From positions 1 through 26,320 of the forward strand of contig CALAHL010000536.1 in NCBI GenBank assembly GCA_937891725.1: a DNA stretch of 26,320 nucleotides. Direction: 5' to 3'. The notes under the pieces are model-generated. The model saw only the letters and a program-made list of their open reading frames with translations, did no database searches and was not told where the DNA came from. How positions within the stretch are numbered: position 1 is the first letter of the stretch; each line of letters starts with the position of its first letter. The position numbers and the translations under genes are program-made. Shown piece by piece: positions 547-25,838 of the stretch. This DNA comes from an uncultured Rhodospirillaceae bacterium (lineage in GTDB: Bacteria > Pseudomonadota > Alphaproteobacteria > Thalassobaculales > Thalassobaculaceae).

Positions 547-582
547 GGCCAGCACGCGATCCACGGGGACCACGTGCTGGCC
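547..582. terminator. Hairpin between convergent genes, possible terminator
   Basis: GGCCAGCACG (547-556) and CGTGCTGGCC (573-582) form a perfect 10-bp inverted repeat just past the stop of the 592..1590 gene. There is no clean U-tract. Confidence 0.4.
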
Positions 583-591
583 AGTAGGTTT

Positions 592-1590
592 TTAGTTGTG
601 GGAATGGGCCGACATGGCGCCGACCGGGCCGATCGGGACCGTCACGGTCATCTCCAGCCCGGTGTCGAAATGCAGGGTCAACGGAAAGCTCTCGCCCTCG
701 ACCAGAGGACGCCTGAGCCCGGTCATCATGACGTGATGTCCGCCCGGCTTCAGTGAGATCGTGCCGCCGCCCGGGATCATCAGGTGATCGATTTGCCGCA
801 TCTTGTGGGTCCCACCTTCCATTTTCATCTCGTGCAGCTCGATCCGTTCGGCAACCTCGCCCCGGATTTGGGTCAGCGCCAGCGGAGAATCGCCGGTGTT
901 GCGGAGCTGAACATATGCGGCACCAGTCCGCGCCGCCCCGGGTGTCGCCCGGGCAAAAGCTTTGGAGGCGGTGATCGGGCCGACCGTCACGGTGCTCGGG
1001 GCCGGGGCTGACGCGGCGTGGCTCTGATGGCCGCCACCACGCGCCTCGGTGATTTTCAGGACCGGTGCCGGATGCGGCAGGTCGTGCGGGTCCTGGCCCG
1101 GAGCGGCGATCTCGGTCCAGGCCACCTGGGCGTCGCCGCAGCTCTGGGTCACCCGGATCGGAAGCTCGGTGCCGTCCGGCAGATCGGTGATCCGGGCCCG
1201 GAACACGAACTCGTCGTAGAACGCGTCGGAGAGCGACCCCTCGGACCAGACAATCCGGCGCACACCCTCCGCCATTGGGGTTCCGTAATAATCGTAGGTC
1301 TTGTCGTAAGCACCGATCTCCGTGGCCAGCGTCCAGCCCGCCTTCGGCATCGGCTTGGCCGCGATCACCCCATCGGGAAGCTCGACGGTGAGCCGGTCGG
1401 TGGCGGCGCCGTCGCAGCCATGACCGATGCGGATGACCGCCTTATAGGTGCTGTTCGCGGCGGCGGTGGAGGATTCAAGGGTGGCATGGGCCGCGGCTGT
1501 GCCCGGCAGGGCGACCAACGCCCCCAGGGTCAGGGCGAGAGACAGAGTGACGAGCGGCGCACGCGCCGCAGAGGTCATGAACATGGTCAT
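592..1590 (-). CDS. Exported copper-binding fusion: DUF1775 (YcnI-like) domain + PCu(A)C copper chaperone domain
   Basis: Signal peptide ending AAA-H. YcnI-like N-domain (HATLES...IGHGC...KPMPKAGW...FYDEFVF...VAWTE...HPAP). The C-domain has the exact PCuAC motif H-x10-M-x21-H-x-M (HEMKMEGGTHKM...GHHVM). AGGA SD precedes ATG 1590. Confidence 0.9.
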   Translation of the reverse strand: MTMFMTSAARAPLVTLSLALTLGALVALPGTAAAHATLESSTAAANSTYKAVIRIGHGCDGAATDRLTVELPDGVIAAKPMPKAGWTLATEIGAYDKTYDYYGTPMAEGVRRIVWSEGSLSDAFYDEFVFRARITDLPDGTELPIRVTQSCGDAQVAWTEIAAPGQDPHDLPHPAPVLKITEARGGGHQSHAASAPAPSTVTVGPITASKAFARATPGAARTGAAYVQLRNTGDSPLALTQIRGEVAERIELHEMKMEGGTHKMRQIDHLMIPGGGTISLKPGGHHVMMTGLRRPLVEGESFPLTLHFDTGLEMTVTVPIGPVGAMSAHSHN

Positions 1591-1656
1591 GAATTAACAT
1601 CCTGTTTTTGATTGTATTTTTGATCCGGTATATTGCTCGGATCGGCCGAAAGCAGG

Positions 1657-2082
1657 TCAGGTTTCGGCGATCTGGGGCGGCGCGCGGGCGTGGTTGCTTC
1701 CCCACAACGCGACACGGCGCGGCGGGTCGAGTGGCCGAGTCCACAGGACCGCAGGGTCGCCGGAGGCGGGGCGCGGGACGATATCGCCCAGGTCCGGCGC
1801 CTGGATCGCATGCGATCCCGCCAGGAAGCAGGCCGGGCAATGCGGGTAGCGGTTGGGGTCCGGACGCGGGCCGTCGCCGCCGTCGAGCGCGCGGGTGGTC
1901 GGCCCGCTGGGCGAACAGATCTCGATGATCGCCAGACCGTCCGGGGCCGACTGCGCCGCATGGGCGACGACCACGCCGAGCAGGATCTGGAACAGAACCG
2001 ACAGCGTCGCGAGAACCGACACAAGATCTCGGACGCTCCGCTCCGGGCCGGCGGTCGTGGTAACGGGTCGGATCGAATTCAT
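1657..2082 (-). CDS. DUF2946-like (CruR-like) leader peptide with CxxC and C-terminal RAPP motif
   Basis: Hydrophobic N-terminal segment LVSVLATLSVLFQILLGVVVAHAA, IEIC, CPAC (1828-1839), Pro-rich linker, ARAPP (RAPP at 1675-1686) five codons before the stop. ATG 2082 is preferred over GTG 2106. Confidence 0.8.
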   Translation of the reverse strand: MNSIRPVTTTAGPERSVRDLVSVLATLSVLFQILLGVVVAHAAQSAPDGLAIIEICSPSGPTTRALDGGDGPRPDPNRYPHCPACFLAGSHAIQAPDLGDIVPRPASGDPAVLWTRPLDPPRRVALWGSNHARAPPQIAET

Positions 2083-2148: not shown

Positions 2149-2505
2149 TCACCCTTTCCGCCCCGCCTTCTCGTCCAGGCCGGACAGGCCCTCGCGGCGG
2201 GCCAGCTCGGACCAGACCTGGGCGGGATCGAGCCCCGCCGCCGTCCAGACCACCAGCAAATGGTACAGCAGATCGGCACTTTCGGCGGCGAGCTTCTCGG
2301 ACTTTCCGCTGCCGGCGTCCAGCTTGATCGCCTCGATCACCGTCTCGACCGCTTCCTCGCCGAGCTTCTGGGCGCATGTCTCCATGCCGCGCGCCAGCAG
2401 CTTGGCGGTGTAGCTTTCCGAGGGGTCAGCGCCGCGCCGGGTCGCCAGGGTGGCGGCGAGTTGGTCCAGAACGGCGGCGGTCGCCTTCGCGTCAGGCCCG
2501 GTCAT
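2149..2505 (-). CDS. hisE: Phosphoribosyl-ATP pyrophosphohydrolase
   Basis: SYTAKLL...[11 protein letters not shown]...[11 protein letters not shown] motif. ATG 2505 overlaps the hisF stop (ATGA). The longer 252-aa ORF call is spurious upstream. Confidence 0.95.
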
Positions 2506-3278
2506 ATGTCCTCCCGCACCGGCAACCCGGCCTGCGCCATCCTGGCCTTCACCTCGGAGATCCGGTAGGTGCCAAAATGGAAGATCGAGGCGGCCAGGAC
2601 CGCGCTGGCATGGCCCTTGGTCACGCCCTCGACCATGTGATCCAGGGTCCCGACCCCGCCGGACGCGATCACCGGCACCGAGACCGCGTCGGCGACCGCC
2701 CGGGTCAGCTCCAGATCGAAGCCGGATTTGGTGCCGTCCTTGTCCATCGAGGTCAGCAGGATCTCGCCCGCCCCCAGCTCGACCAGACGCTGGCACCAGC
2801 TGACGGCCTCCAGGCCGGTCGGATTGCGGCCGCCATGGGTGAACACCTCGAACCGGGTCTCGCCGCCCTCGGTGACCCGCTTGGGGTCGACCGCGACGGT
2901 GATGCACTGGCTGCCGAACTTGAGAGCGGCCTGACGCACGAACTCGGGATCCTTGACCGCGGCGGTGTTGATCGAGACCTTGTCGGCGCCGGCCAGCAGC
3001 AGTTTTCGGATGTCCTCCAGGGTGCGGACCCCTCCGCCGACCGTCAGCGGCATGAAGCAGTGCTCCGCCGTGCTGGCCACCACGTCGAACAGGGTGTCGC
3101 GGCCTTCATGGCTGGCGGTGATGTCGAGAAAGCAGAGCTCGTCCGCCCCTTCCGCATCGTAGATCCGCGCCTGCTCGACCGGATCTCCCGCATCGACCAG
3201 ATCGACGAAATTGACGCCTTTGACGACCCGGCCGTCCTTCACGTCGAGACAGGGAATAACCCGGACGGTCAAGCTCAT
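2502..3278 (-). CDS. hisF: Imidazole glycerol phosphate synthase cyclase subunit
   Basis: [56 protein letters not shown]. Confidence 0.98.
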
Positions 3279-4006
3279 GCCGCAGCCCCCAGCAGACGCG
3301 CCGCCGCACCGGGCTCGACCCGGCCGTCATAGAGCGCGCGGCCGACGATCGCGCCCGCGACACCGTCCGCCTCCAGGGCCTTGATCGCCGCCAGATCCTC
3401 CAGCGACGAAACCCCGCCCGAGGCGATCACCGGGGTGGTCAGCAGACGGGCCAGAGCCCCGGTCGCCTCGAGATTGGGGCCCTGCATCGCCCCGTCCCGG
3501 TCGATATCGGTGAACACGATCGCCGCCACACCCGCATCCTCGAACGCCAGCGCCAGATCGGTCGCGGTCATCTCCGAGGTCTCGGCCCAACCCTCGACCG
3601 CCACCTTGCCGCCGCGCGCATCGATTCCCACCGCGATCCGCTCGGGATATTGCCGGCAGGCGGCCTTGACCAGATCCGGATCCCGCAAGGCCACCGTGCC
3701 CAGCACCACGCGCCGGATTCCGGCGTCCAGCCAGCGCGCGATCGCCGCCATGTCACGGATGCCGCCGCCCAGTTGAACCGGGACCGTGACGGATTTCAGG
3801 ATGGACTGGACCGCCGCCGCGTTGACCGCCCGGCCCGCGAACGCTCCGTCCAGGTCCACCACATGGACCCAGCCGCAGCCGGCGCTCTCGAAGCTGGCGG
3901 CCTGCGCGCCCGGATCGTCGCCATAGACGGTGGCGGCGTCCATTTCACCTCGCAAAAGGCGGACACACTGGCCGCCCTTCAGGTCAATCGCGGGATACAG
4001 GATCAT
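3275..4006 (-). CDS. hisA: ProFAR isomerase
   Basis: [47 protein letters not shown]. Confidence 0.97.
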
Positions 4007-4587
4007 GCGCCATCCTCGCTCTGCGTCTCGTTGAGCAGTTTGTAATAGAACAGGCCCCTGATCGGCCGGTCGTTCACCTTGGCGTAGAACGGATGTTCGC
4101 CGAATTTCCGGTAGCCGAGCGTTTCGTACATCCGGATCGCCGCCCGCTGGGTCTCCCGCACATCCAGGTTGAGCACCTGGAAGCCGATGCGACGGGCGTG
4201 ATCCTCACCGATTTCCATCAGCTTGCGCGCCAACCCGTGCCCCCGCGCCCAGGGCGCCACGAAGAAGGTGGTCTGATTGCAGGCGAAGCTCTGGGCCTCA
4301 TTGTTCCGCGGCGGCCGCTGAATCTGGCAGGATCCGGCGATCACCCCGTCCAGCCGACCGACGAACAGGTCCCGCTCCGGAATCAGAACCACGCCCCGCC
4401 AGAACTGCTCCAGCGTGTGGCGCGGCGGGGGTTTCAGCCAGCCGAACCCGCCGCCGTCGATGATCGCCGCCTCGGCCGCGTCACACAGATCGTGCAGGTC
4501 GGCGGGCGAGAGTTCCGTCAGCTGCTCGACGGTCACCTTGGGAGGCGACGGCATGTCCAGGCCCCGGGCCCCCGTGTCATCCGTCAT
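4003..4587 (-). CDS. GNAT family N-acetyltransferase
   Basis: [17 protein letters not shown] (acetyl-CoA binding motif A), [21 protein letters not shown] (motif B). ATGA overlaps with hisH (4584-4587) and hisA (4003-4006). Confidence 0.9.
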
Positions 4588-5243
4588 GGCGTCCACTCCA
4601 GAAAGTTCGAGATCAGCCGCAGCCCGGTCTTCTGTGATTTCTCCGGGTGGAACTGGGTGCCCACCATATTCTCGCGCCCGATGATCGCGGTCACCGGGCC
4701 ACCGTAGTCGACGCCGGCCAGGCGGTCCGGCGCGTGCGCGACCGTCATCGCGTAGGAATGAACGAAATAAGCATAATCCCCTCCGCCGAGACCTTCCAGA
4801 ACCGGATGTGTAACCGTGGCGATCTCCAGTCGGTTCCAGCCCATATGCGGAATCTTCCGCGCGCGCCCGTCCGCCTCCGGCGTCGGCTCGATCCGCTCGA
4901 CCACGCCGGGCACCCAGCCGAACCCCTCGGTCCGTCCGTGCTCCAGGCCGGCATCGGCCATCAGCTGCATCCCGACGCAGATCCCGAGAAACGGCACGCC
5001 CGCGCCCCGCACCCGTTCGGTCAGCACCTCCATCATGCCGTCGACCGCCAGCAGGCCCGCCTTGCAGTCGGCATAGGCCCCCACCCCCGGCAGCACGATC
5101 CGGTCGGCCCGGCGCACCGCGTCGGCATCACCGGTCACCAGGATCTCCCCGTGCAGCCCCAGCTCCGCCACACAGCGCTGAAACGCTTTCGCGGCGGACC
5201 GGAGATTGCCGGATCCGTAATCGATGATGGCGGTGGTGGTCAT
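4584..5243 (-). CDS. hisH: Imidazole glycerol phosphate synthase glutaminase subunit
   Basis: [26 protein letters not shown] (catalytic Cys), YFVHSY, QFHPEKS. Confidence 0.97.
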
Positions 5244-5327
5244 GTCAGGTCCTCGCCCGAGCGCTCCGGCTGGTATCGAACCGGCCCGTGCCGAGACCGG
5301 AGGGTCGGAGACGGGTCGGAAGTGGGA

Positions 5328-5954
5328 TCAATCGGAGCGCAGCGCGCCCTTGGTCGACGGGATCGCATCGGCCTTGCGGGGATCGATCTCCACCGCCTGG
5401 CGCAACGCCCGGGCCAGCCCCTTGAAGCTGGCCTCGATCATATGATGGCTGTTCTCGCCGTGCAGGATCTCGACATGAAGCGTGGCCCCCGCCGCCTGCG
5501 CGAAGGCGCGGAACCACTCCTTGAACAGCTCGGTATCGAACTCGCCGATCTTCTGGGTCGGAAACGCCACATCCCAGTACAGGTAAGGCCGGCCGGACAG
5601 ATCGATCGCCACCCGCGCCAGGGTCTCGTCCATCGGCAACAGGGCCGAGCCGTAGCGGGTGATGCCCTTGCGATCGCCCAACGCCTTGGCGACCGCCGCC
5701 CCCACCACATAGCCCGAATCCTCGGTGGTGTGGTGAAAGTCGATGTGCAGATCGCCTTTGGCGGTCAGCTCCAGATCGATCAGCGAATGGCGCGACAGCT
5801 GTTCCAGCATGTGATCGAGAAACCCGATCCCGGTCGACACGGTGTACGCGCCGGTGCCGTCCAGGGCCACCGAACCGGTGATCTTGGTCTCATTGGTGTC
5901 GCGGGAGATGGTGGCCGTGCGCCCCGTCCCGCTTTTGCTGCCGGCTTCCGCCAT
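5328..5954 (-). CDS. hisB: Imidazoleglycerol-phosphate dehydratase
   Basis: [56 protein letters not shown] precedes ATG 5954. Confidence 0.97.
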
Positions 5955-6036
5955 GATCGCCTCCATCTTCAAGCGGGCGGAGGTTTACCAGGAAGTGCCG
6001 AGGGGGGCTAGTCCGCAGGTACAGGGCGAACCCAGC

Positions 6037-6550: not shown

Positions 6551-6592
6551 CTAGGCTTTCGGCGCCAAAGGCTAGGCTTTCGGCGCCAGAGG
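6551..6592. repeat. 21-bp tandem duplication of the parB 3' end
   Basis: ctaggctttcggcgccaaagg (6551-6571) and ctaggctttcggcgccagagg (6572-6592) are 20/21 identical. On the minus strand each copy reads PLAPKA-stop. Confidence 0.95.
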
Positions 6593-7669
6593 ATCGTCGT
6601 CGTCGTCCTCATCGTCGCCCGGCTCCAAATCGGGATCGATATCCGTGTCGTCCTCCAGGCCGGAGGCGAACTCCGACGCCTTCCGCATGTTCTCCTCGAA
6701 ATTGTCGGCGAGCTCACCGGAGAAATCCGGGGAGGTGAACGGCGCCCGCTCGGCCGAGCCGGTGGAGATGTTCGACAGCCGCTCGACGATCAGATCGAGC
6801 TGGTCCAGATCGCCGTAGCGGATGGTGACCAGCCCGGCGCCGGTCTTGGAATTGTGATCGATCGCGACCGTCAGACCCAGCCGTTCCGTCAGATCCTCTT
6901 CCAGCACGCGGGTATCGGCGTCCTTCTGCTTGCCCGCCCCGCCGGAGCGCTTGCTGGCCGCAGGCGCGCCGCCGGCCTTCTCGTTCTGGACCAGCCGCTC
7001 GGTCTCGCGCACGTTCAGCTTTCGGGTCACGACGATCCGGGCCAGCGCCGAGGGGTCTTCCGCCGACAGCAGGGCGCGGGCATGCCCCATGGTCAGCTGG
7101 CCGTCGTCGAGCAGGGCGCGCGCCTCCTCCGGCAACAGCAGCAGACGCATCATGTTTGCGACATGGCTGCGGCTTTTCGCGACCGCCCGGGCGATCGCCT
7201 CCTGGCTGTGTCCGTAATCCTCGGTCAGGCGCCGATAGCCCTCGGCCTCCTCGAGCGGGCCGAGATCCTTGCGCTGGACGTTCTCGACCAGGGCGATCTC
7301 CATCGCCGTCCGGTCGTCGAACTCCCGCACCAGGACCGGAACCTCGTGCAGCTGCGCCATCTGCGAGGCCCGCCAGCGCCGCTCACCGGCGATGATCTGA
7401 TAGCCCTCGCCCTCGGGATCGCGGCGCACCAGGATCGGCTGAAGCACGCCGTTCTCCCGAATGCTCTCCGACAGCTCCCGCAATTCCTCCTCGTCGAACC
7501 GGCGACGGGGCTGGAACGGGCCGGGCGCCAGCCGTTCGATCGGCAGGGACCGGGTCTGACGCAGACGGTCGAGCTGCGCCTGATCCTCGTCCTCATCCTC
7601 GCCCAGCAGAGCCGACAGCCCTCGCCCGAGCTTCTTGTTGGTCTTCTTCGGCGCGGGTTCGTCACTCAT
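6572..7669 (-). CDS. parB: Chromosome partitioning protein ParB with acidic C-terminal extension
   Basis: LGRGLSALLGE ParA-interaction motif, QPRRRF, IIAGERRWRA CTP-binding box, ENVQRKDL, HTH SQEAIARAVAKSRSHVANMMRLL. Start ATG 7669. Confidence 0.97.
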   Translation of the reverse strand: MSDEPAPKKTNKKLGRGLSALLGEDEDEDQAQLDRLRQTRSLPIERLAPGPFQPRRRFDEEELRELSESIRENGVLQPILVRRDPEGEGYQIIAGERRWRASQMAQLHEVPVLVREFDDRTAMEIALVENVQRKDLGPLEEAEGYRRLTEDYGHSQEAIARAVAKSRSHVANMMRLLLLPEEARALLDDGQLTMGHARALLSAEDPSALARIVVTRKLNVRETERLVQNEKAGGAPAASKRSGGAGKQKDADTRVLEEDLTERLGLTVAIDHNSKTGAGLVTIRYGDLDQLDLIVERLSNISTGSAERAPFTSPDFSGELADNFEENMRKASEFASGLEDDTDIDPDLEPGDDEDDDDDPLAPKA

Positions 7670-7727
7670 GAAAGGATCTCTGCTGATGGCAAGTCGGTAG
7701 TCCGTGCGGTTTCGTAGATTTCCGTCC

Positions 7728-7761
7728 ATATAGGGTAATCGGGAATTTCATTACCCTATAT
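7728..7761. promoter_or_regulatory. Perfect 12-bp inverted repeat with 10-bp spacer between parA and parB (function unknown)
   Basis: ATATAGGGTAAT (7728-7739) - cgggaatttc - ATTACCCTATAT (7750-7761). It is AT-rich in a GC-rich context. Confidence 0.6.
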
Positions 7762-7782
7762 AGAGTGTGGTAGCGACGGCGC

Positions 7783-8625
7783 TCAGGCCGCCTCCGCCAG
7801 ATCCTTTTCCCGCCGCAGCACTTCCCGCGCCAGGTCGAGATAGGCGCGGGCGCCGGTGCAGGTCATATCGTAGAGCAGAACCGGCTTGCCGTAGGACGGG
7901 GCTTCCGAGACCCGGACGTTGCGCGGGATCATCGTGCGGTACACCGTGGTGCCGAAATGCTCCCGCACATCGGCCGCGACCTGTTCCGAGAGGTTGTTGC
8001 GGCGATCGAACATGGTCAGAACCACGCCCTGGATCTCCAGGGTCGGATTCAGATGCTTGCGCACCCGTTCGACCGTCCGGATCAGCTGAGACAGGCCCTC
8101 AAGCGCGTAGAACTCGCATTGCAACGGCACCAGCACCGCATCGGACGCGACCAGCGCATTCAGCGTGAGCAGGCCCAGGGACGGCGGGCAGTCGATCAGG
8201 ATGTAGTCATAGGGCGACGCGGCCGCGTGCCGCACCACGGCTTCCCGCAGGCGGAACTCCCGGTGCTCCATCGAGACCAGCTCGATCTCCGCACCCGACA
8301 GGTTCTGCGACGCCGGCACCAGCTCAAGCCCCGGAATACCGGACTCGATCGCGGCATCGGCAATCGTGGCCTCGCCGATCAGCACCGCGTAGGAATCCGC
8401 CTCCCGCTTGTTGCGCGCGATCCCGAAGCCGGTCGAGGCGTTGCCCTGCGGGTCCAGGTCGATCACCAGCACCCGCTTGTTGCAGGCCGCCATCGCGGTC
8501 GCCAGGTTCACCGCGGTGGTGGTTTTGCCCACCCCGCCCTTCTGATTCACGATCGCCAGGATCCGGGGCGCCACATTGCCGCCGGAGGGCGGCAGGTCAG
8601 GCATCGAACGGGCTGCATCAGGCAT
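7783..8625 (-). CDS. parA: Chromosome partitioning ATPase ParA (Soj)
   Basis: AIVNQKGGVGKTT deviant Walker A, IDLDPQGNAS, YILIDCPPSLG, PLQCEFYALEG, IPRNVRVSEAPSYG. Confidence 0.98.
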   Translation of the reverse strand: MPDAARSMPDLPPSGGNVAPRILAIVNQKGGVGKTTTAVNLATAMAACNKRVLVIDLDPQGNASTGFGIARNKREADSYAVLIGEATIADAAIESGIPGLELVPASQNLSGAEIELVSMEHREFRLREAVVRHAAASPYDYILIDCPPSLGLLTLNALVASDAVLVPLQCEFYALEGLSQLIRTVERVRKHLNPTLEIQGVVLTMFDRRNNLSEQVAADVREHFGTTVYRTMIPRNVRVSEAPSYGKPVLLYDMTCTGARAYLDLAREVLRREKDLAEAA

Positions 8626-9238
8626 GGGTCACACCCTCCAAAAGCACAATGGTCCCGCGCGAATCACTACGGCTAGGGACCTTGGTAACATTCATATTCC
8701 AGTGCTTTTGGGCATCGGTCAACTCTTCGTCCACCCGCTCCCCTTTGAGGAACAGGTAGCGCGTTGAATCATCAGAGTATGACTTGGCATATTCGAGCAG
8801 TTTCGAGACCGGCGCGAGGGCCCGTGCGGTGATCAAACCGGCCCGAATCGGCTTGAGGGACTCGATTCGGCAACATTCGATGGCAACTCTGGCTCCGGTG
8901 ACCCGGGCCGCCTCCGACAGGAACGCCGCCTTGCGCCGATCGGATTCCACAAGCGTGATGTCCCCGCGCCCCAGAACCGCCAGAACCAGACCCGGAAATC
9001 CCGCCCCGGAGCCGAGATCCAGAACCGGGCCCGGAATTTCGGCCATCAGCGGCAGAAGTTGCGCGGAATCGAGGACATGACGGCGCCAAACCTCCTCCAG
9101 GGTCTTGGGCGCGACGAGATTGATGCGCTTCTGCCATTTGGTCAGCAGATCCACATAGGCCGAGAGCCGCGCAAGGGTCTCCGCATCGGTCTGAAGCGCA
9201 TCACGGACCTGAGATTTGGTGAGATCTGGAGCTGTCAT
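8618..9238 (-). CDS. rsmG: 16S rRNA m7G527 methyltransferase (GidB)
   Basis: KWQKRINLV, RHVLDSAQL, LDLGSGAGFPG, VESDRRKAAFL, ITARALAP, LFLKG. Confidence 0.96.
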   Translation of the reverse strand: MTAPDLTKSQVRDALQTDAETLARLSAYVDLLTKWQKRINLVAPKTLEEVWRRHVLDSAQLLPLMAEIPGPVLDLGSGAGFPGLVLAVLGRGDITLVESDRRKAAFLSEAARVTGARVAIECCRIESLKPIRAGLITARALAPVSKLLEYAKSYSDDSTRYLFLKGERVDEELTDAQKHWNMNVTKVPSRSDSRGTIVLLEGVTHA

Positions 9239-9246
9239 GGGTTGGA

Positions 9247-11118
9247 TCAGGCCGCAGAGCGGTTGGCGCCGCGTTTCACGTGACGCAAAAGTGCCAGGGT
9301 CGCGGCCGGCGTCATCCCCGGAAGCCGCGCCGCCTGCCCCAGCGTGGTCGGCCGCGCCCGTTTCAGCAGATCCCGGACCTCCGAGGACAGGCTGCCGATC
9401 GCATCCGGGTCGAGATCCGCCGGCAGTGCGACCGCCTCATCCCGGCGATAGGCCTTCACGTCCAGATCCTGGCGGGCGAGATATCCGGAATAGAGCGCTT
9501 CGATCGACAGCTGCTCGGCCAGATCCGGGCTCACGCCGCCCAGATCCTCCGGCCAGACCCGGACCAGCGCCGCCCAGTCGACCCCCGGGTAGGATAGAAG
9601 ATCGGCGGCACTGCGCCGCTGGCCGTCCTGATTGACCGAAAAGCCCAACTTCGCGAGCTGCGGTGGCGAGCCGCCGAGACGGTCGAGTGTTTCACGTGAA
9701 ACATTCAGCGCGTCCATCCGGGCCTCAAACGCCGCCTGACGCGCGGACCCCACCAGACCGGCGGCGATCCCCAGCCCGGTCAGCCGCTGATCCGCATTAT
9801 CGGCCCGCAGATACAAACGGTATTCGGCGCGGGAGGTGAACATCCGATACGGCTCCGGCGCCCCCCGTGTGGTCAGATCGTCGATCATCACACCGATATA
9901 GCCCTGCGCCCGGTCGATACTGAGCTCGATCCCGGCCGCATGGGTGCCGGCCACCAGGCCCTGGGCGGCCGCCTCCTCATAGCCGGTGGTGCCGTTGATC
10001 TGGCCCGCCAGATAGAGACCGGGCAGCCGACGGCTCTGGAGATCGGCCGTGAGGTCGCGCGGATCGGCATAGTCATACTCGATCGCGTAGCCCGCCTGCA
10101 GGATCTCTGCGCGCTCCAGTCCCGGAATCGTCTTCAGTAGCGACTCCTGGACATCCCGCGGCAGAGAGGTCGAGATGCCGTTCGGATAGATCGTGGGATC
10201 GTCCAAACCCTCCGGTTCCAGGAAAATCTGATGACTGGTCTTGTCGGCGAAGCGGACGATCTTGTCCTCGATCGACGGACAATAGCGCGGGCCCCGCCCC
10301 TCGATATGGCCGCCATACATGGCCGAGCGGTGCAGATTGTCCCGGATGATGCGATGCCCGGCCTCAGAGGTCGCGGTGATATGGCAGGGGATCTGCGGCA
10401 CCGTGATCTGGTCGGTCAGGGTCGAGAACGGCACCGGCGGATCGTCGCCGTGCTGCACGTCCAGCCCGGCCCAATCGATCGTACGGCCATCCAGACGCGG
10501 TGGCGTGCCGGTCTTCAGGCGGCCCAGCGGAAACCCCATCGCCTCCATCCGGGCGCCCAGGGCCGCGGCCGGACCGTCGCCGACCCGGCCGGCAGGCGTG
10601 CGCTCTTCTCCCATATGAATCATGCCGCGCAGGAAGGTCCCGGTGGTCAGCACCACCGCCCCCGCCCGGACACGGCGTCCGTCCTGCAGCACCACACCGC
10701 CGCAGCGGCCATCGGCCCCGACGATCAGGTCGTCGACCCCCGCCTTTTCGATCGACAGGGTCTCATAGTCCCGAAGGATTTCCTGAACTGCCTGACGATA
10801 GAGCTTACGGTCGGCCTGGGCGCGCGGGCCGCGCACCGCCGGGCCTTTCGACAGATTGAGTACGCGGAACTGGATGCCGGACCGGTCGATGGCGCGGGCC
10901 ATGATCCCGTCCAGCGCATCGATCTCCCGCACCAGATGGCCCTTGCCCAAGCCGCCGATCGCCGGGTTGCAGGACATCACCCCGATCGTGTCGCGCCGAT
11001 GGGTCACCAGCAGCGTGCGCGCACCGAGACGGGCGGAGGCCGCCGCCGCCTCACAGCCGGCATGGCCGCCGCCCACGACGATCACGTCCCAGAGTACTGC
11101 GTCAACTATCTCGCTCAT
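9247..11118 (-). CDS. mnmG: tRNA uridine-5-carboxymethylaminomethyl(34) synthesis enzyme (GidA)
   Basis: [81 protein letters not shown]. Start ATG 11118 (MSEIVD). Confidence 0.98.
9272..9287. other. Degenerate parS site inside the mnmG 3' end
   Basis: CGTTTCACGTGACGCA matches TGTTTCACGTGAAACA at 13/16 positions; the left arm is intact apart from the outer base. Confidence 0.5.
9688..9703. other. parS centromere-like site (perfect), inside mnmG CDS
   Basis: TGTTTCACGTGAAACA perfect palindrome, encoding NVSRET on the minus strand. Confidence 0.92.
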
Positions 11119-11165
11119 GGTCTGGTGATACGGAAACCGCAGCGTTCCGTCAAAGACTTCGCGCA

Positions 11166-11181
11166 TGTTTCACGTGAAACA
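11166..11181. other. parS site (perfect) between mnmE and mnmG
   Basis: TGTTTCACGTGAAACA within a 22-bp perfect palindrome gcaTGTTTCACGTGAAACAtgc (11163-11184). Confidence 0.95.
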
Positions 11182-11187
11182 TGCCTC

Positions 11188-12528
11188 TCATTTCCCCAGA
11201 CAGAAGCTGCTGAAGATCACATCGAGCAGATCGTCCACATCCACACGCCCGGTGATACGCCCGATCGCCTGGGCCGCATGGCGCAGATCCTCGGCCACCA
11301 GCTCCAACGGCTGCGCATCGGCCAGCCCGCCCTGCGCCCGTTCCAAAGCAGCCCGCGCCGCACTCACCGCATGCCGGTGCCGGGCCCGGGTCAGGCTCGG
11401 CGCCTCCCCGAGCCCCATCATCCGGTCGGCCTCCTCGGTCAATCGGGCCAGAAGCGGCGCAAGTCCGGCCTCGGTCTTCACCGAAACCCCGATCCATCCC
11501 TCCGGCACGGCGCCTCCAAGATCGGTCTTGCTGGCCACCCGAAGGTCCCGCGCGCCGTCGCGCCCCGGCAAATCCCCATCAAAAGCAGTTCCGGCCACCG
11601 CCATATGGATCACCAGATCGGCGGCCCGGGCCCGGTCGAGCGCCCGACGCACCCCCTCCCGCTCCACCGAATCGGCGGTTTCGCGCAATCCGGCGGTGTC
11701 CCATAGGGTCACCGGATAGCCGTTCAGATCGAGGCTGACCTCAAGGACATCCCGGGTCGTGCCCGCGGTCTCACTCACAATCGCAACATCCCGATTCGCC
11801 AAGGCGTTAAGCAAGGAAGACTTACCGGCATTCGGAGGTCCGACAATGGCCATACTCAGGCCGTCCCGCAGCCGCTCGCCCCGTGTCGACTCCTGTTCCA
11901 GGCCGGCCAGGCGCACGACCAGCGCCGCCAGCTCGTCGGCGGTCTGCTGAAGCAGGTCCTGGGGGATCTCCTCATCCGGAAAGTCGATCCAGGCCTCGAG
12001 CATCGCCAAAGCGTGAATCAGCTCGTCCCGGAGCGGATCCAGCACCGCGCCGATCCCGCCGCCCATCTGCCGGAGCGCCTGGGCGCGCTGGGCCGCGGTT
12101 TCCGCGTCGATCAGATCAGCCAGGCCCTCCGCCTCGGCCAGATCCATCTTGCCGTTGAGGAAGGCGCGGCGCGAAAACTCCCCCGGATCCGCCGGCCGCA
12201 GGCCGGGACACGCCTCGAGCGCGCGAAAGATCCCGTCGAGCACCGCGGAGCCGCCGTGCAGATGAAGCTCCACCACGTCTTCGCCGGTGAAGCTGGCCGG
12301 GCCGGGAAACAGCACCGCAAGCCCGCGGTCGAGCAGCGCCCGGTCAACCGGCGCCCGAAACGACACCAGCGCCATCTCGCGCGGCTTCAGCCCGGACGCG
12401 CCCAGCCGCGCCGCCGCCGGTGCGGCCGCAGGTCCTGAAATGCGGATCACCGCCACGCCGGCCCGCCCCGGCGCGCTGGCCAAGGCGAAGATCGTCTCAC
12501 CCTTGGCGGATGGCAGACTTTCGGTCAT
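11188..12528 (-). CDS. mnmE: tRNA modification GTPase (TrmE)
   Basis: TIFALASAPGRAGVAVIRISG, SFTGEDVVELHLHGG, GPPNAGKSSLLNAL, GTTRD, DTAGLR, C-terminal FCLGK. Start ATG 12528. Confidence 0.98.
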   Translation of the reverse strand: MTESLPSAKGETIFALASAPGRAGVAVIRISGPAAAPAAARLGASGLKPREMALVSFRAPVDRALLDRGLAVLFPGPASFTGEDVVELHLHGGSAVLDGIFRALEACPGLRPADPGEFSRRAFLNGKMDLAEAEGLADLIDAETAAQRAQALRQMGGGIGAVLDPLRDELIHALAMLEAWIDFPDEEIPQDLLQQTADELAALVVRLAGLEQESTRGERLRDGLSMAIVGPPNAGKSSLLNALANRDVAIVSETAGTTRDVLEVSLDLNGYPVTLWDTAGLRETADSVEREGVRRALDRARAADLVIHMAVAGTAFDGDLPGRDGARDLRVASKTDLGGAVPEGWIGVSVKTEAGLAPLLARLTEEADRMMGLGEAPSLTRARHRHAVSAARAALERAQGGLADAQPLELVAEDLRHAAQAIGRITGRVDVDDLLDVIFSSFCLGK

Positions 12529-12630
12529 GAAACCGTGACTCCGTCTCTCACATGCTGATCGCGCTCTGGCGGACAGGTGATCCGATCTGTAGCCTCTTGC
12601 TCGGTCCGGTTCAATTCGGAGACAGCGCTC

Positions 12631-13125
12631 ATGGCCATCGAACCTCCGCTTCACGCAAGCCGCCTCGACAGCCCGGTCGGCGACCTGGTGGCGCTGTCGG
12701 ACGGTGCACATCTGGTCCGACTTACGTGGGCGGAGGAGCTGGATGACGCGCCCGACCTTCACGGGGAAGACGCTGTTTCACGTGAAACATCCAGGCAGCT
12801 CAAGGCTTATTTCGCGGGCGAACTGACTGCGTTCGAGCTGCCGATCCGGTTCGCGCGCGGCACCGACTTCGAGCAGGCGGTCTGGCGCGGGATGCTGGAG
12901 ATCCCCCATGGCGAGACCAGAACCTACGGCGATCTGGCGCACCTGACCGACGGCATCGCGCGGGCGGTCGGCACCGCCTGCGGCCGCAACCCGATCCCGA
13001 TCGTGGTGCCCTGCCACCGGGTGGTCGGGTCGGACGGGAAGCTGGTCGGGTTCTCCGGCGGCAAGGGAGTGGAGACCAAATCCTGGCTGCTGGATTTTGA
13101 GCGGGGCCAGAAACGGCTGTTCTAA
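12631..13125 (+). CDS. ogt: Methylated-DNA--protein-cysteine methyltransferase
   Basis: LDSPVGDL, GTDFEQAVW, IPHGETRTYG, ARAVGTACGRNPIPIVVPCHRVV (active-site PCHR), KSWLLDFE. GGAG SD precedes ATG 12631. Confidence 0.93.
   Translation: MAIEPPLHASRLDSPVGDLVALSDGAHLVRLTWAEELDDAPDLHGEDAVSRETSRQLKAYFAGELTAFELPIRFARGTDFEQAVWRGMLEIPHGETRTYGDLAHLTDGIARAVGTACGRNPIPIVVPCHRVVGSDGKLVGFSGGKGVETKSWLLDFERGQKRLF
12774..12789. other. parS site (perfect), inside ogt CDS
   Basis: TGTTTCACGTGAAACA, encoding AVSRET. Confidence 0.92.
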
Positions 13126-24441: not shown

Positions 24442-24578
24442 CTTGTCATGGTCTCGATGAGCGGGACCGCACCTCCCCCAGGAACACACGCGCATTTCAG
24501 GTGGCCCGTCCACCAAGTCCGTACGCAAAGTACGACTCCCGACCCCGCCCGTTCCGCGCGCATGACACGAAAATCCGG

Positions 24579-25838
24579 ATGAATCTTCAAGAACTCAAAG
24601 CCAAAACACCCGCCGATCTCCTCGCGTTTGCCGAAGAGCTCGAAATCGAAAACGCGAGCACGCTGCGCAAGCAGGACATGATGTTCGCGATCCTGAAGCA
24701 ATTGGCAGACAACGATGTCGCCATCTTCGGGCAAGGCGTTCTGGAGACCCTGCCCGACGGGTTCGGCTTCCTCCGCTCGCCGGAATCCAACTACCTGCCG
24801 GGGCCCGACGACATCTACGTTTCTCCCAGCCAGGTGCGCCGCTTCGGTCTGCGCACCGGCGACACGGTCGAGGGCGAGATCCGGTCTCCGAAGGATGGCG
24901 AGCGCTATTTCGCGCTGCTCAAGGTCAACCAGATCAATTTCGAGGATCCGGACGCGGTCCGTCACCGGATCAACTTCGACAACCTGACCCCGCTCTATCC
25001 GGACGAGAAGCTCAGCCTGGAGCTGCCGTTCAAGCCGGAAAACAAGGAATACACCACAAGGGTGATCGACCTGATCTCGCCGCTCGGCAAGGGCCAGCGC
25101 GGACTGATCGTCGCCCCGCCGCGCACCGGCAAGACGGTGATGCTGCAGAACATCGCCCACGCGATTTCCGAGATGCATCCCGAGGTCTACCTGATCGTGC
25201 TGCTGATCGACGAGCGGCCCGAGGAAGTGACTGACATGGACCGCTCGGTGAAGGGCGAGGTGATCTCCTCGACCTTCGACGAGCCGGCCTCGCGCCACGT
25301 CCAGGTCACCGAGATGGTGATCGAGAAGGCCAAGCGGCTGGTCGAGCACAAGCGCGATGTGGTGATCCTGCTGGATTCCATCACCCGTCTGGCCCGCGCC
25401 TACAACACCGTGGTGCCGTCCTCGGGCAAGGTGCTGACCGGCGGTGTCGACGCCAACGCTCTGCAGCGCCCGAAGCGGTTCTTCGGTGCCGCCCGGAACA
25501 TCGAGGAAGGCGGCTCGCTGACGATCATCGCGACCGCCCTGATCGACACCGGCTCGCGCATGGACGAGGTGATCTTCGAAGAGTTCAAGGGCACCGGCAA
25601 CTCCGAGCTGATCCTCGACCGCAAGCTGGCCGACAAGCGCACCTTCCCTGCCATCGACATCACCAAGTCGGGCACCCGGAAGGAAGAGCTGCTGGTCGAC
25701 AAGCCGACCCTGTCCAAGATGTGGGTCCTGCGCCGCATCCTGATGCAGATGGGCACCGTCGACAGCATGGAATTCCTGGTCGACAAGCTGAAGCATTCCA
25801 AGAGCAACGCGGACTTCTTCGACGCGATGAACTCCTGA
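24579..25838 (+). CDS. rho: Transcription termination factor Rho
   Basis: [75 protein letters not shown]. 419 aa from ATG 24579. Confidence 0.98.

Follow-up and report, generated by a model that had tools for sequence, protein, structure and literature searches.

The first 26,320 nucleotides (nt) of contig CALAHL010000536.1, from an uncultured Rhodospirillaceae bacterium (Thalassobaculaceae; GenBank assembly GCA_937891725.1), were analysed as a single stretch, referred to here as the window. Near its beginning lie two co-oriented genes on the minus strand, a short leader open reading frame (ORF) at 1657..2082 and, 66 nt downstream, a copper chaperone gene that starts at an ATG at 1590 and extends over 592..1590. 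An earlier note, prepared from the DNA letters without database searches, had proposed that the leader is a copper-sensing arrest peptide that controls the chaperone gene. The components named in that proposal, namely the ORF, the IEIC and CPAC motifs, a 47-residue spacer, RAPP five codons before the stop, and the 66-nt gap, were all located as described, and all features of both genes lie on the minus strand at the positions given there.

The leader gene runs from an ATG at 2082 to a TGA at 1657-1659 and encodes a product of 141 amino acids (aa). A hidden Markov model search against DUF2946 (PF11162), which the earlier note had suggested as a check, was positive at 37.0 bits (E = 6.6e-9, gathering cut-off 23.7), well outside what chance would give, with profile positions 3-117 of 117 aligned to leader aa 24-136, while no NCBIfam model matched the leader. 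Its guanine plus cytosine (GC) content by codon position is 72/59/84%, the same pattern as in the downstream gene, and this profile, typical of real genes in this genome, identifies the frame as the true coding frame. Overall GC reaches 71% in the leader versus 65% in the window and 41% in the intergenic gap. A GTG at 2106 offers an alternative start with 8 extra residues; the called starts of homologues match the ATG at 2082. Judged by sequence, the ORF genuinely belongs to the published CruR/CutF (DUF2946) family, whose members are copper-sensing leaders, and is an ordinary representative of it; its annotation should read CruR/CutF-family copper-responsive leader, not hypothetical protein. 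It is also the sole DUF2946 match above the cut-off in the assembly. A second copy was considered and rejected, as the other match, on contig C218, scored 14.9 bits (E = 0.119) and fell below that cut-off.

The leader protein opens with a hydrophobic segment at aa 20-42 (1957..2025), in agreement with the signal-like or transmembrane-like stretch noted earlier, and its best 15-residue Kyte-Doolittle window (aa 25-39) has a mean of 2.38. The segment ends in a signal-peptidase-like site, predicted from hydropathy and by-eye reading to be cut between AHA and AQ, and may serve as a Sec signal peptide or as an N-in anchor. An N-terminal export signal occurs in more than 95% of the DUF2946 family. 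Cys56, the last residue of IEIC (aa 53-56; codon 1915..1917), corresponds to the semi-conserved third cysteine of the family, and CPAC (aa 82-85; 1828..1839) is the presumed copper-sensing CxxC. The spacer that follows (1687..1827) measures exactly 47 residues, as had been claimed; its description as proline-rich was generous, since it holds 7 prolines and is only moderately rich in them. The RAPP arrest motif (aa 133-136; 1675..1686) is followed by QIAET and the stop codon.

The downstream gene encodes a 332-aa fusion protein, and its assignment in the earlier note to the DUF1775-PCuAC architecture agrees with matches of 131.5 bits to DUF1775 (PF07987; cut-off 25; aa 35-180, window 1051-1488) and 118.3 bits to PCuAC (PF04314; cut-off 29.4; aa 209-316, window 643-966). 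The protein carries its own signal peptide, for which a cut between AAA and HAT is predicted. Such cleavage would leave His35, which occupies profile position 1 of DUF1775, as the mature N-terminus, as in the monohistidine brace of YcnI. PCuAC chaperones bind copper(I) through an H(M)X10MX21HXM motif. The corresponding H-X10-M-X21-H-X-M arrangement is intact at aa 253-288, and the closest solved relative of this half is TTHA1943 (PDB 2k6w, E = 1.6e-19). On these sequence features the protein can be marked as an exported two-site copper chaperone. Across the assembly (4.14 Mb in 947 contigs, 87% complete), only one PCuAC match and one DUF1775 match exceed their cut-offs, and both lie in this gene. 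A subset of proteobacterial DUF1775 domains is known to be fused to PCuAC (Damle et al. 2021, PMC8424229), which is the same two-domain architecture as here; no upstream leader is discussed in that work, and no DUF1775-PCuAC fusion protein is known to have been characterised. A PCuAC-type protein of Bradyrhizobium is described as inducible by copper starvation (Serventi 2012).

Conservation was followed first among close homologues. Five were found by protein search (54-97% identity), and the hydrophobic segment, Cys56, CPAC and RAPP are invariant in all of them. In an alignment of 7 homologues (53-97% identity) L27-A42 is nearly invariant, and no insertion or deletion separates CPAC from RAPP, yet the spacer sequence drifts, which means that its length is kept and its sequence is not. 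The distribution of the leader is patchy: the protein used as a query found matches in 2 of 60 related genomes, and the DUF2946 profile detected members in 23 of the 63 genomes of its taxonomic family and in 4 of the 17 genera. Three relatives (L086, L088 and L089) share the arrangement around the leader, with the fusion gene next to it wherever the contig extends. In one of them the called start of the leader (L088:3001-3357, protein P0005) falls within the hydrophobic segment, and the protein begins MLSVLFQ. This database protein is probably truncated at its N-terminus, because an ATG aligned with the start in the window sits about 75 nt upstream of the called one.

A wider survey took the best 80 loci encoding relatives of the fusion protein, on contigs representing one genome per species. 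Directly upstream of the fusion-type gene, 56 of the 80 carry a co-oriented ORF ending in R[AG]PP (RAPP in 39, RGPP in 17), with the motif 1-9 residues from the stop (mode 3); the neighbourhood survey proposed earlier thus finds such leaders ahead of DUF1775/PCuAC genes in most loci. When these 56 leaders were aligned with that of the window, the only invariant columns among the 57 sequences were C82, R133, P135 and P136, and C56 and C85 were at least 90% conserved. Individually, 37 of the 57 match DUF2946 at E <= 0.01. Adding the window and two more relatives to the 56 survey loci gave a set of 59; in 54 of them a CxxC or CxxxC is sited 41-49 residues before the arrest motif, and the gap between leader and cargo has a median of 61 nt (range 19 to 257 nt). 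Loss of RAPP and CxxC among orthologues had been named in advance as evidence that would speak against a regulatory leader, and both the motifs and their spacing proved to be conserved. The nearest named relatives belong to Thalassobaculum and Thalassobaculaceae, and a cultured relative, Thalassobaculum litoreum DSM 18839 (locus L007), is among the surveyed loci. The leaders of the Microvirga/Beijerinckiaceae group (L009, L011-L016, L018-L020, L022, L023, L025-L027) have CxxxC (e.g. CTLSC) in place of CxxC and, before the same fusion gene, keep the exact RAPP and a spacing of 45-47 residues, so that a CutF cysteine motif is mixed with a CruR arrest motif.

These patterns bear on whether the leader protein itself has a function. 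It could be stable, bind copper at the membrane (as an anchored protein) or in the periplasm, and cooperate in trans with the YcnI-PCuAC fusion, perhaps by passing copper on to it, with RAPP doing no more than slow its synthesis. The hydrophobic segment and the cysteine region are conserved far beyond what a plain export signal would need, three cysteines are conserved, and the operon is shared with two copper-binding domains. A spacer that keeps its length but not its sequence suits a ruler better than a fold, however, and RAPP lies within nine residues of the stop in all 56 survey leaders. Moreover, neither the CruR nor the CutF protein can be detected in vivo, and cutF is published to act only in cis. 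We therefore hold a role in trans to be quite doubtful. It is also conceivable that the leader monitors secretion in the manner of SecM or ApdA, with the pulling force of Sec export freeing the arrest and copper playing no part, as the first RAPP arrest peptides to be discovered, which have N-terminal export signals, precede sec and yidC genes (PMC12992588). In this locus, however, the downstream gene lies outside the export machinery, and both the invariant CxxC and the consistently copper-related cargo would lack an explanation, which makes a secretion monitor very improbable.

The family to which the leader belongs has been studied in two systems of opposite logic. Roy et al. (2022, PMC9426467) defined DUF2946 by CxxC, RAPP and a spacing of 45 residues (within one or two), and showed that CruR of Bordetella pertussis controls a downstream transporter through copper-relieved arrest and Rho-dependent termination, a response that needs RAPP, CxxC, the spacing and Rho. 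The C51S exchange in CruR, at the equivalent of Cys56, left regulation intact (Roy et al. 2022, PMC9426467). A toeprint places the CruR arrest with both proline codons in the P and A sites (EMBO J 2025, PMC12992588). In Rhodobacter capsulatus, copper-induced stalling in CutF is instead described as opening a stem-loop over cutO's ribosome-binding site (Öztürk et al. 2023, PMC9973294). The earlier note had left open whether the pairing of such a leader with a PCuAC/YcnI gene had been described. It is already described in three surveys, all of which list PCuAC and two of which list YcnI: PcuAC, ScoC, YcnI and CopC are among the genes of cruR-headed operons (Roy et al. 2022, PMC9426467, Fig. 7); the neighbours of CutF-like genes are led by outer-membrane efflux proteins, followed by TonB-like proteins and by PCuAC-like chaperones (Öztürk et al. 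2023, PMC9973294, Fig. 6); and YcnI-family and PCu(A)C genes are preceded more often than expected by small ORFs with RAPP or RGPP (EMBO J 2025, PMC12992588). The leader described here is exactly of the class covered by the last survey, which reports bulk statistics, whereas here both cargo domains reside in one protein and a single locus was read in detail.

The resemblance to CruR (Bp2923, in the cruR-crtA(bfrG)-bp2921 unit) covers the DUF2946 match, the export signal, the semi-conserved third cysteine, CxxC, a spacer of 45 residues in CruR and of 47 in our leader, the latter at the edge of the range given for the family, an exact RAPP shortly before the stop, an excess of C over G that spans the gap and the 3' portion of the leader, and the position as first gene of a copper-acquisition unit. 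The two differ in their cargo, which is a TonB-dependent transporter and a PepSY_TM protein in Bordetella but a YcnI-PCuAC fusion here, in the gap (162 nt versus 66 nt), and in the number of residues after RAPP (three versus five). Among these leaders, arrest at the two prolines of RAPP has been demonstrated for CruR only. CutF (cutFOG; Öztürk 2021, 2023, PMC9973294; bioRxiv 10.1101/2025.02.05.636593) shares DUF2946, a Sec signal peptide, a cysteine metal motif, a C-terminal proline stall site, a short gap and an alphaproteobacterial host with our case. It departs from it in having CxxxC and a looser proline-rich motif, in its detoxifying multicopper oxidase cargo, and in a copper-induced stall that acts on a stem-loop shielding the cutO Shine-Dalgarno sequence, a helix that is not predicted here.

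The locus thus presents a DUF2946 family member with CxxC, a spacer of ruler length and RAPP, placed first in a two-gene unit, in a pairing that is widely conserved. By analogy with CruR, we suggest that it is a CruR-type upstream ORF whose own translation sets the expression of the sole PCuAC/YcnI chaperone found in the assembly, a reading to which we assign a probability of roughly 55%. When copper is scarce, the lead ribosome would be expected to arrest as in the CruR toeprint, Pro135 (1678-1680) occupying the P site and Pro136 (1675-1677) the A site. The arrested ribosome would cover the C-rich, G-poor 3' leader RNA and shield RNA polymerase from Rho, and with Rho kept away transcription would continue into the chaperone gene. 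When copper is available, its binding at CPAC would free the arrest and the ribosome would terminate at 1657-1659; the bare C-rich RNA could then load Rho, and transcription would stop before or early in the chaperone gene. On balance, copper would repress the supply of a chaperone whose task is to load cytochrome oxidase with copper. Release of the stall by copper, as published for CruR, is in keeping with a cargo for copper acquisition.

The ribosome exit tunnel holds approximately 30-40 residues. With Pro135 in the P site, C82 and C85 would lie 53 and 50 residues from the peptidyl-transferase centre, and CPAC would sit just beyond the tunnel during the arrest, as the earlier note had supposed and as fits the picture drawn by Roy et al. 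Copper would be sensed in the cytoplasm if the leader works like CruR, or once the peptide has passed through SecYEG if it works like CutF. The front edge of the stalled ribosome, which lies at about +13 to +15 nt relative to the P-site codon, would extend to the foot of a hairpin (hairpin 1) at 1645..1668. This hairpin has a 7-bp stem and holds the leader stop codon in its loop, and its 5' arm starts 13 nt downstream of the P-site codon's first base.

The composition of the transcript would be compatible with a Rho-dependent output. Sliding windows of 78 nt on the coding strand show C exceeding G by 9-20 points from about 1897 through the gap, and the region 1591..1900, a candidate Rho-loading region, averages +11 points, as compared with -10.4 to +2.7 in fifteen other ORFs of the window. 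A rut-like bubble of C over G, in part forced by proline codons, thus extends from the 3' part of the leader into the gap, and a rho gene is present in the window (24501-25838, plus strand). Over the 59 loci, which are related and not independent, the last 150 nt before RAPP together with the gap average +9.9 points versus +0.9 in the cargo gene, and the difference is seen in 58. No intrinsic terminator was called in the gap between leader and cargo, where a second hairpin leads into an A-run with no U-tract.

Output through translation was weighed in the form known from CutF, in which copper at the exported CPAC would prolong the arrest, the intergenic RNA would be remodelled, and the chaperone would be translated more, giving copper-induced periplasmic buffering. 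CutF is likewise a DUF2946 protein and its host an alphaproteobacterium; the 66-nt gap lies within the range of less than 100 nt proposed for stem-loop unfolding (Öztürk 2023, PMC9973294); the ribosome front would meet hairpin 1; and the start codon is held in a conserved hairpin. However, no predicted stem-loop or anti-Shine-Dalgarno sequence pairs with AGGA (1600..1603), the likely Shine-Dalgarno sequence of the chaperone gene, which lies 9 nt before the ATG and which folding models, with a stall or without, leave about half open. The arrested ribosome was represented in a thermodynamic prediction by forcing 31 nt at the P site and on either side of it to stay single-stranded. In the window, the mean unpaired probability from -20 to +15 around the cargo start codon was 0.53 with and 0.52 without the modelled stall, and three relatives gave a similarly flat result. 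At positions -16 to +3, the mean change in accessibility across the 59 loci was +0.03, and only 5 loci exceeded +0.15. Unmasking of the ribosome-binding site as in CutF was dropped as an output, since predicted accessibility was unchanged by the modelled stall in the window, in three relatives and in 54 of the 59 loci. The combination of CxxC with an exact RAPP is also that of CruR and not the CxxxC and looser proline motif of CutF, and the cargo is an acquisition or assembly chaperone rather than a detoxifying oxidase. Taken together, copper-induced translation of this kind appears unlikely here.

A long-range helix was also tried as a signal and rejected. It is predicted between the RAPP codons and cargo codons 7-10 (z = -4.2) and appears in a four-sequence consensus with one compensatory pair, but by duplex energy the RAPP region pairs with the downstream start no better than with control windows from the same gene. 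In the window itself 30% of the controls pair at least as well, and across the 59 loci the controls outdo the start region (median rank 0.70). The helix is accordingly taken as a by-product of GC-rich Arg-Ala codons on both sides.

A CruR-type leader acting through Rho is favoured because of the excess of C over G, the presence of rho, the lack of a called intrinsic terminator, the flat accessibility of the ribosome-binding site under the modelled stall, and a cargo of the acquisition or assembly type. Several points weigh against it. Our literature search found no experiment on any leader-PCuAC pair; proline (CCN) codons in the spacer account for part of the compositional bias; the gap measures 66 nt as against 162 nt in CruR, and short gaps have been tied to the CutF mode (Öztürk 2023, PMC9973294); and the host is an alphaproteobacterium, as is that of CutF. 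The start codon lies within a conserved small hairpin, a hint of some translational element, and metatranscriptome contigs are too sparse to show attenuation. If the 59 YcnI/PCuAC-linked loci are considered together, the Rho-type excess of C over G is general and a helix that masks the ribosome-binding site is rare, an observation that goes slightly beyond the published surveys. It predicts that chaperone-linked leaders use the CruR output and not the CutF output, a computational hint and the sole new detail offered here.

The gap itself contains further structure. Hairpin 1 has an equivalent with a different stem sequence in L086 and L089. Hairpin 2 (1622..1643), identified by folding and by comparison of relatives, is wholly intergenic, with a 6-bp stem and a 10-nt loop, and is followed by an A/C-rich unstructured run; it is present in all four relatives, where two pairs are changed on both sides in a compensatory manner. 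The start codon of the cargo lies in a palindrome, UCAUGA-N6-UCAUGA (1575..1592), in which four relatives share all six pairs but differ in the loop; as it shows no covariation, it is uninformative about function. These three elements might act in polymerase pausing or RNA stability. It could then be that the intergenic elements couple the arrest to RNA polymerase pausing or to processing or stability of the messenger RNA, which is neither of the published outputs. The elements that suggest this are the hairpin with the stop codon in its loop abutting the stalled ribosome, the compensatory changes in hairpin 2, the A/C-rich run and the start-codon palindrome, and we consider such a mode a long shot. 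If it were true, a DUF2946 leader would set the level of the only PCuAC of the cell and tie cytochrome-oxidase assembly directly to copper supply.

Transcription of the locus was sought in public marine metatranscriptomes. Two runs yielded contigs over 1291-1492 and 1466-1617 only, at a depth of about 3, with none over the leader, and DNA carry-over is possible. One contig ends at 1617, 4 nt past hairpin 2, at a depth too low for reading attenuation. At the other end of the chaperone gene, a 17-bp perfect hairpin (547..583; fold z-score -6.35) follows the cargo stop immediately. It has no U-tract and is not called a canonical terminator; the two-gene unit probably ends there.

Upstream of the leader, and 66 nt away from it, a his cluster at 2149-5972 on the minus strand (hisB, hisH, a GNAT acetyltransferase gene, hisA, hisF and hisE) ends with hisE. 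The gene order into the leader is the same in the three relatives, from hisH (L088 and L089) or from the GNAT gene (L086) through hisE, and relatives also show good conservation of the 66 nt that separate hisE from the leader. In this interval no promoter for the leader and no terminator were called, and no regulator site was recognised. Since neither a terminator nor a promoter was called there, read-through from the his genes into the leader is possible.

Beyond the chaperone gene, the convergent downstream neighbour at 63-476 on the plus strand encodes 137 aa, or more if it extends off the window, and has no Pfam match at E <= 1e-5. Along with the rho gene mentioned above, the window carries parB, parA, mnmG (gidA) and mnmE (trmE) within 6572-12762 on the minus strand; rho, parB, parA, mnmG and mnmE form the set usually found near the replication origin of alphaproteobacteria.

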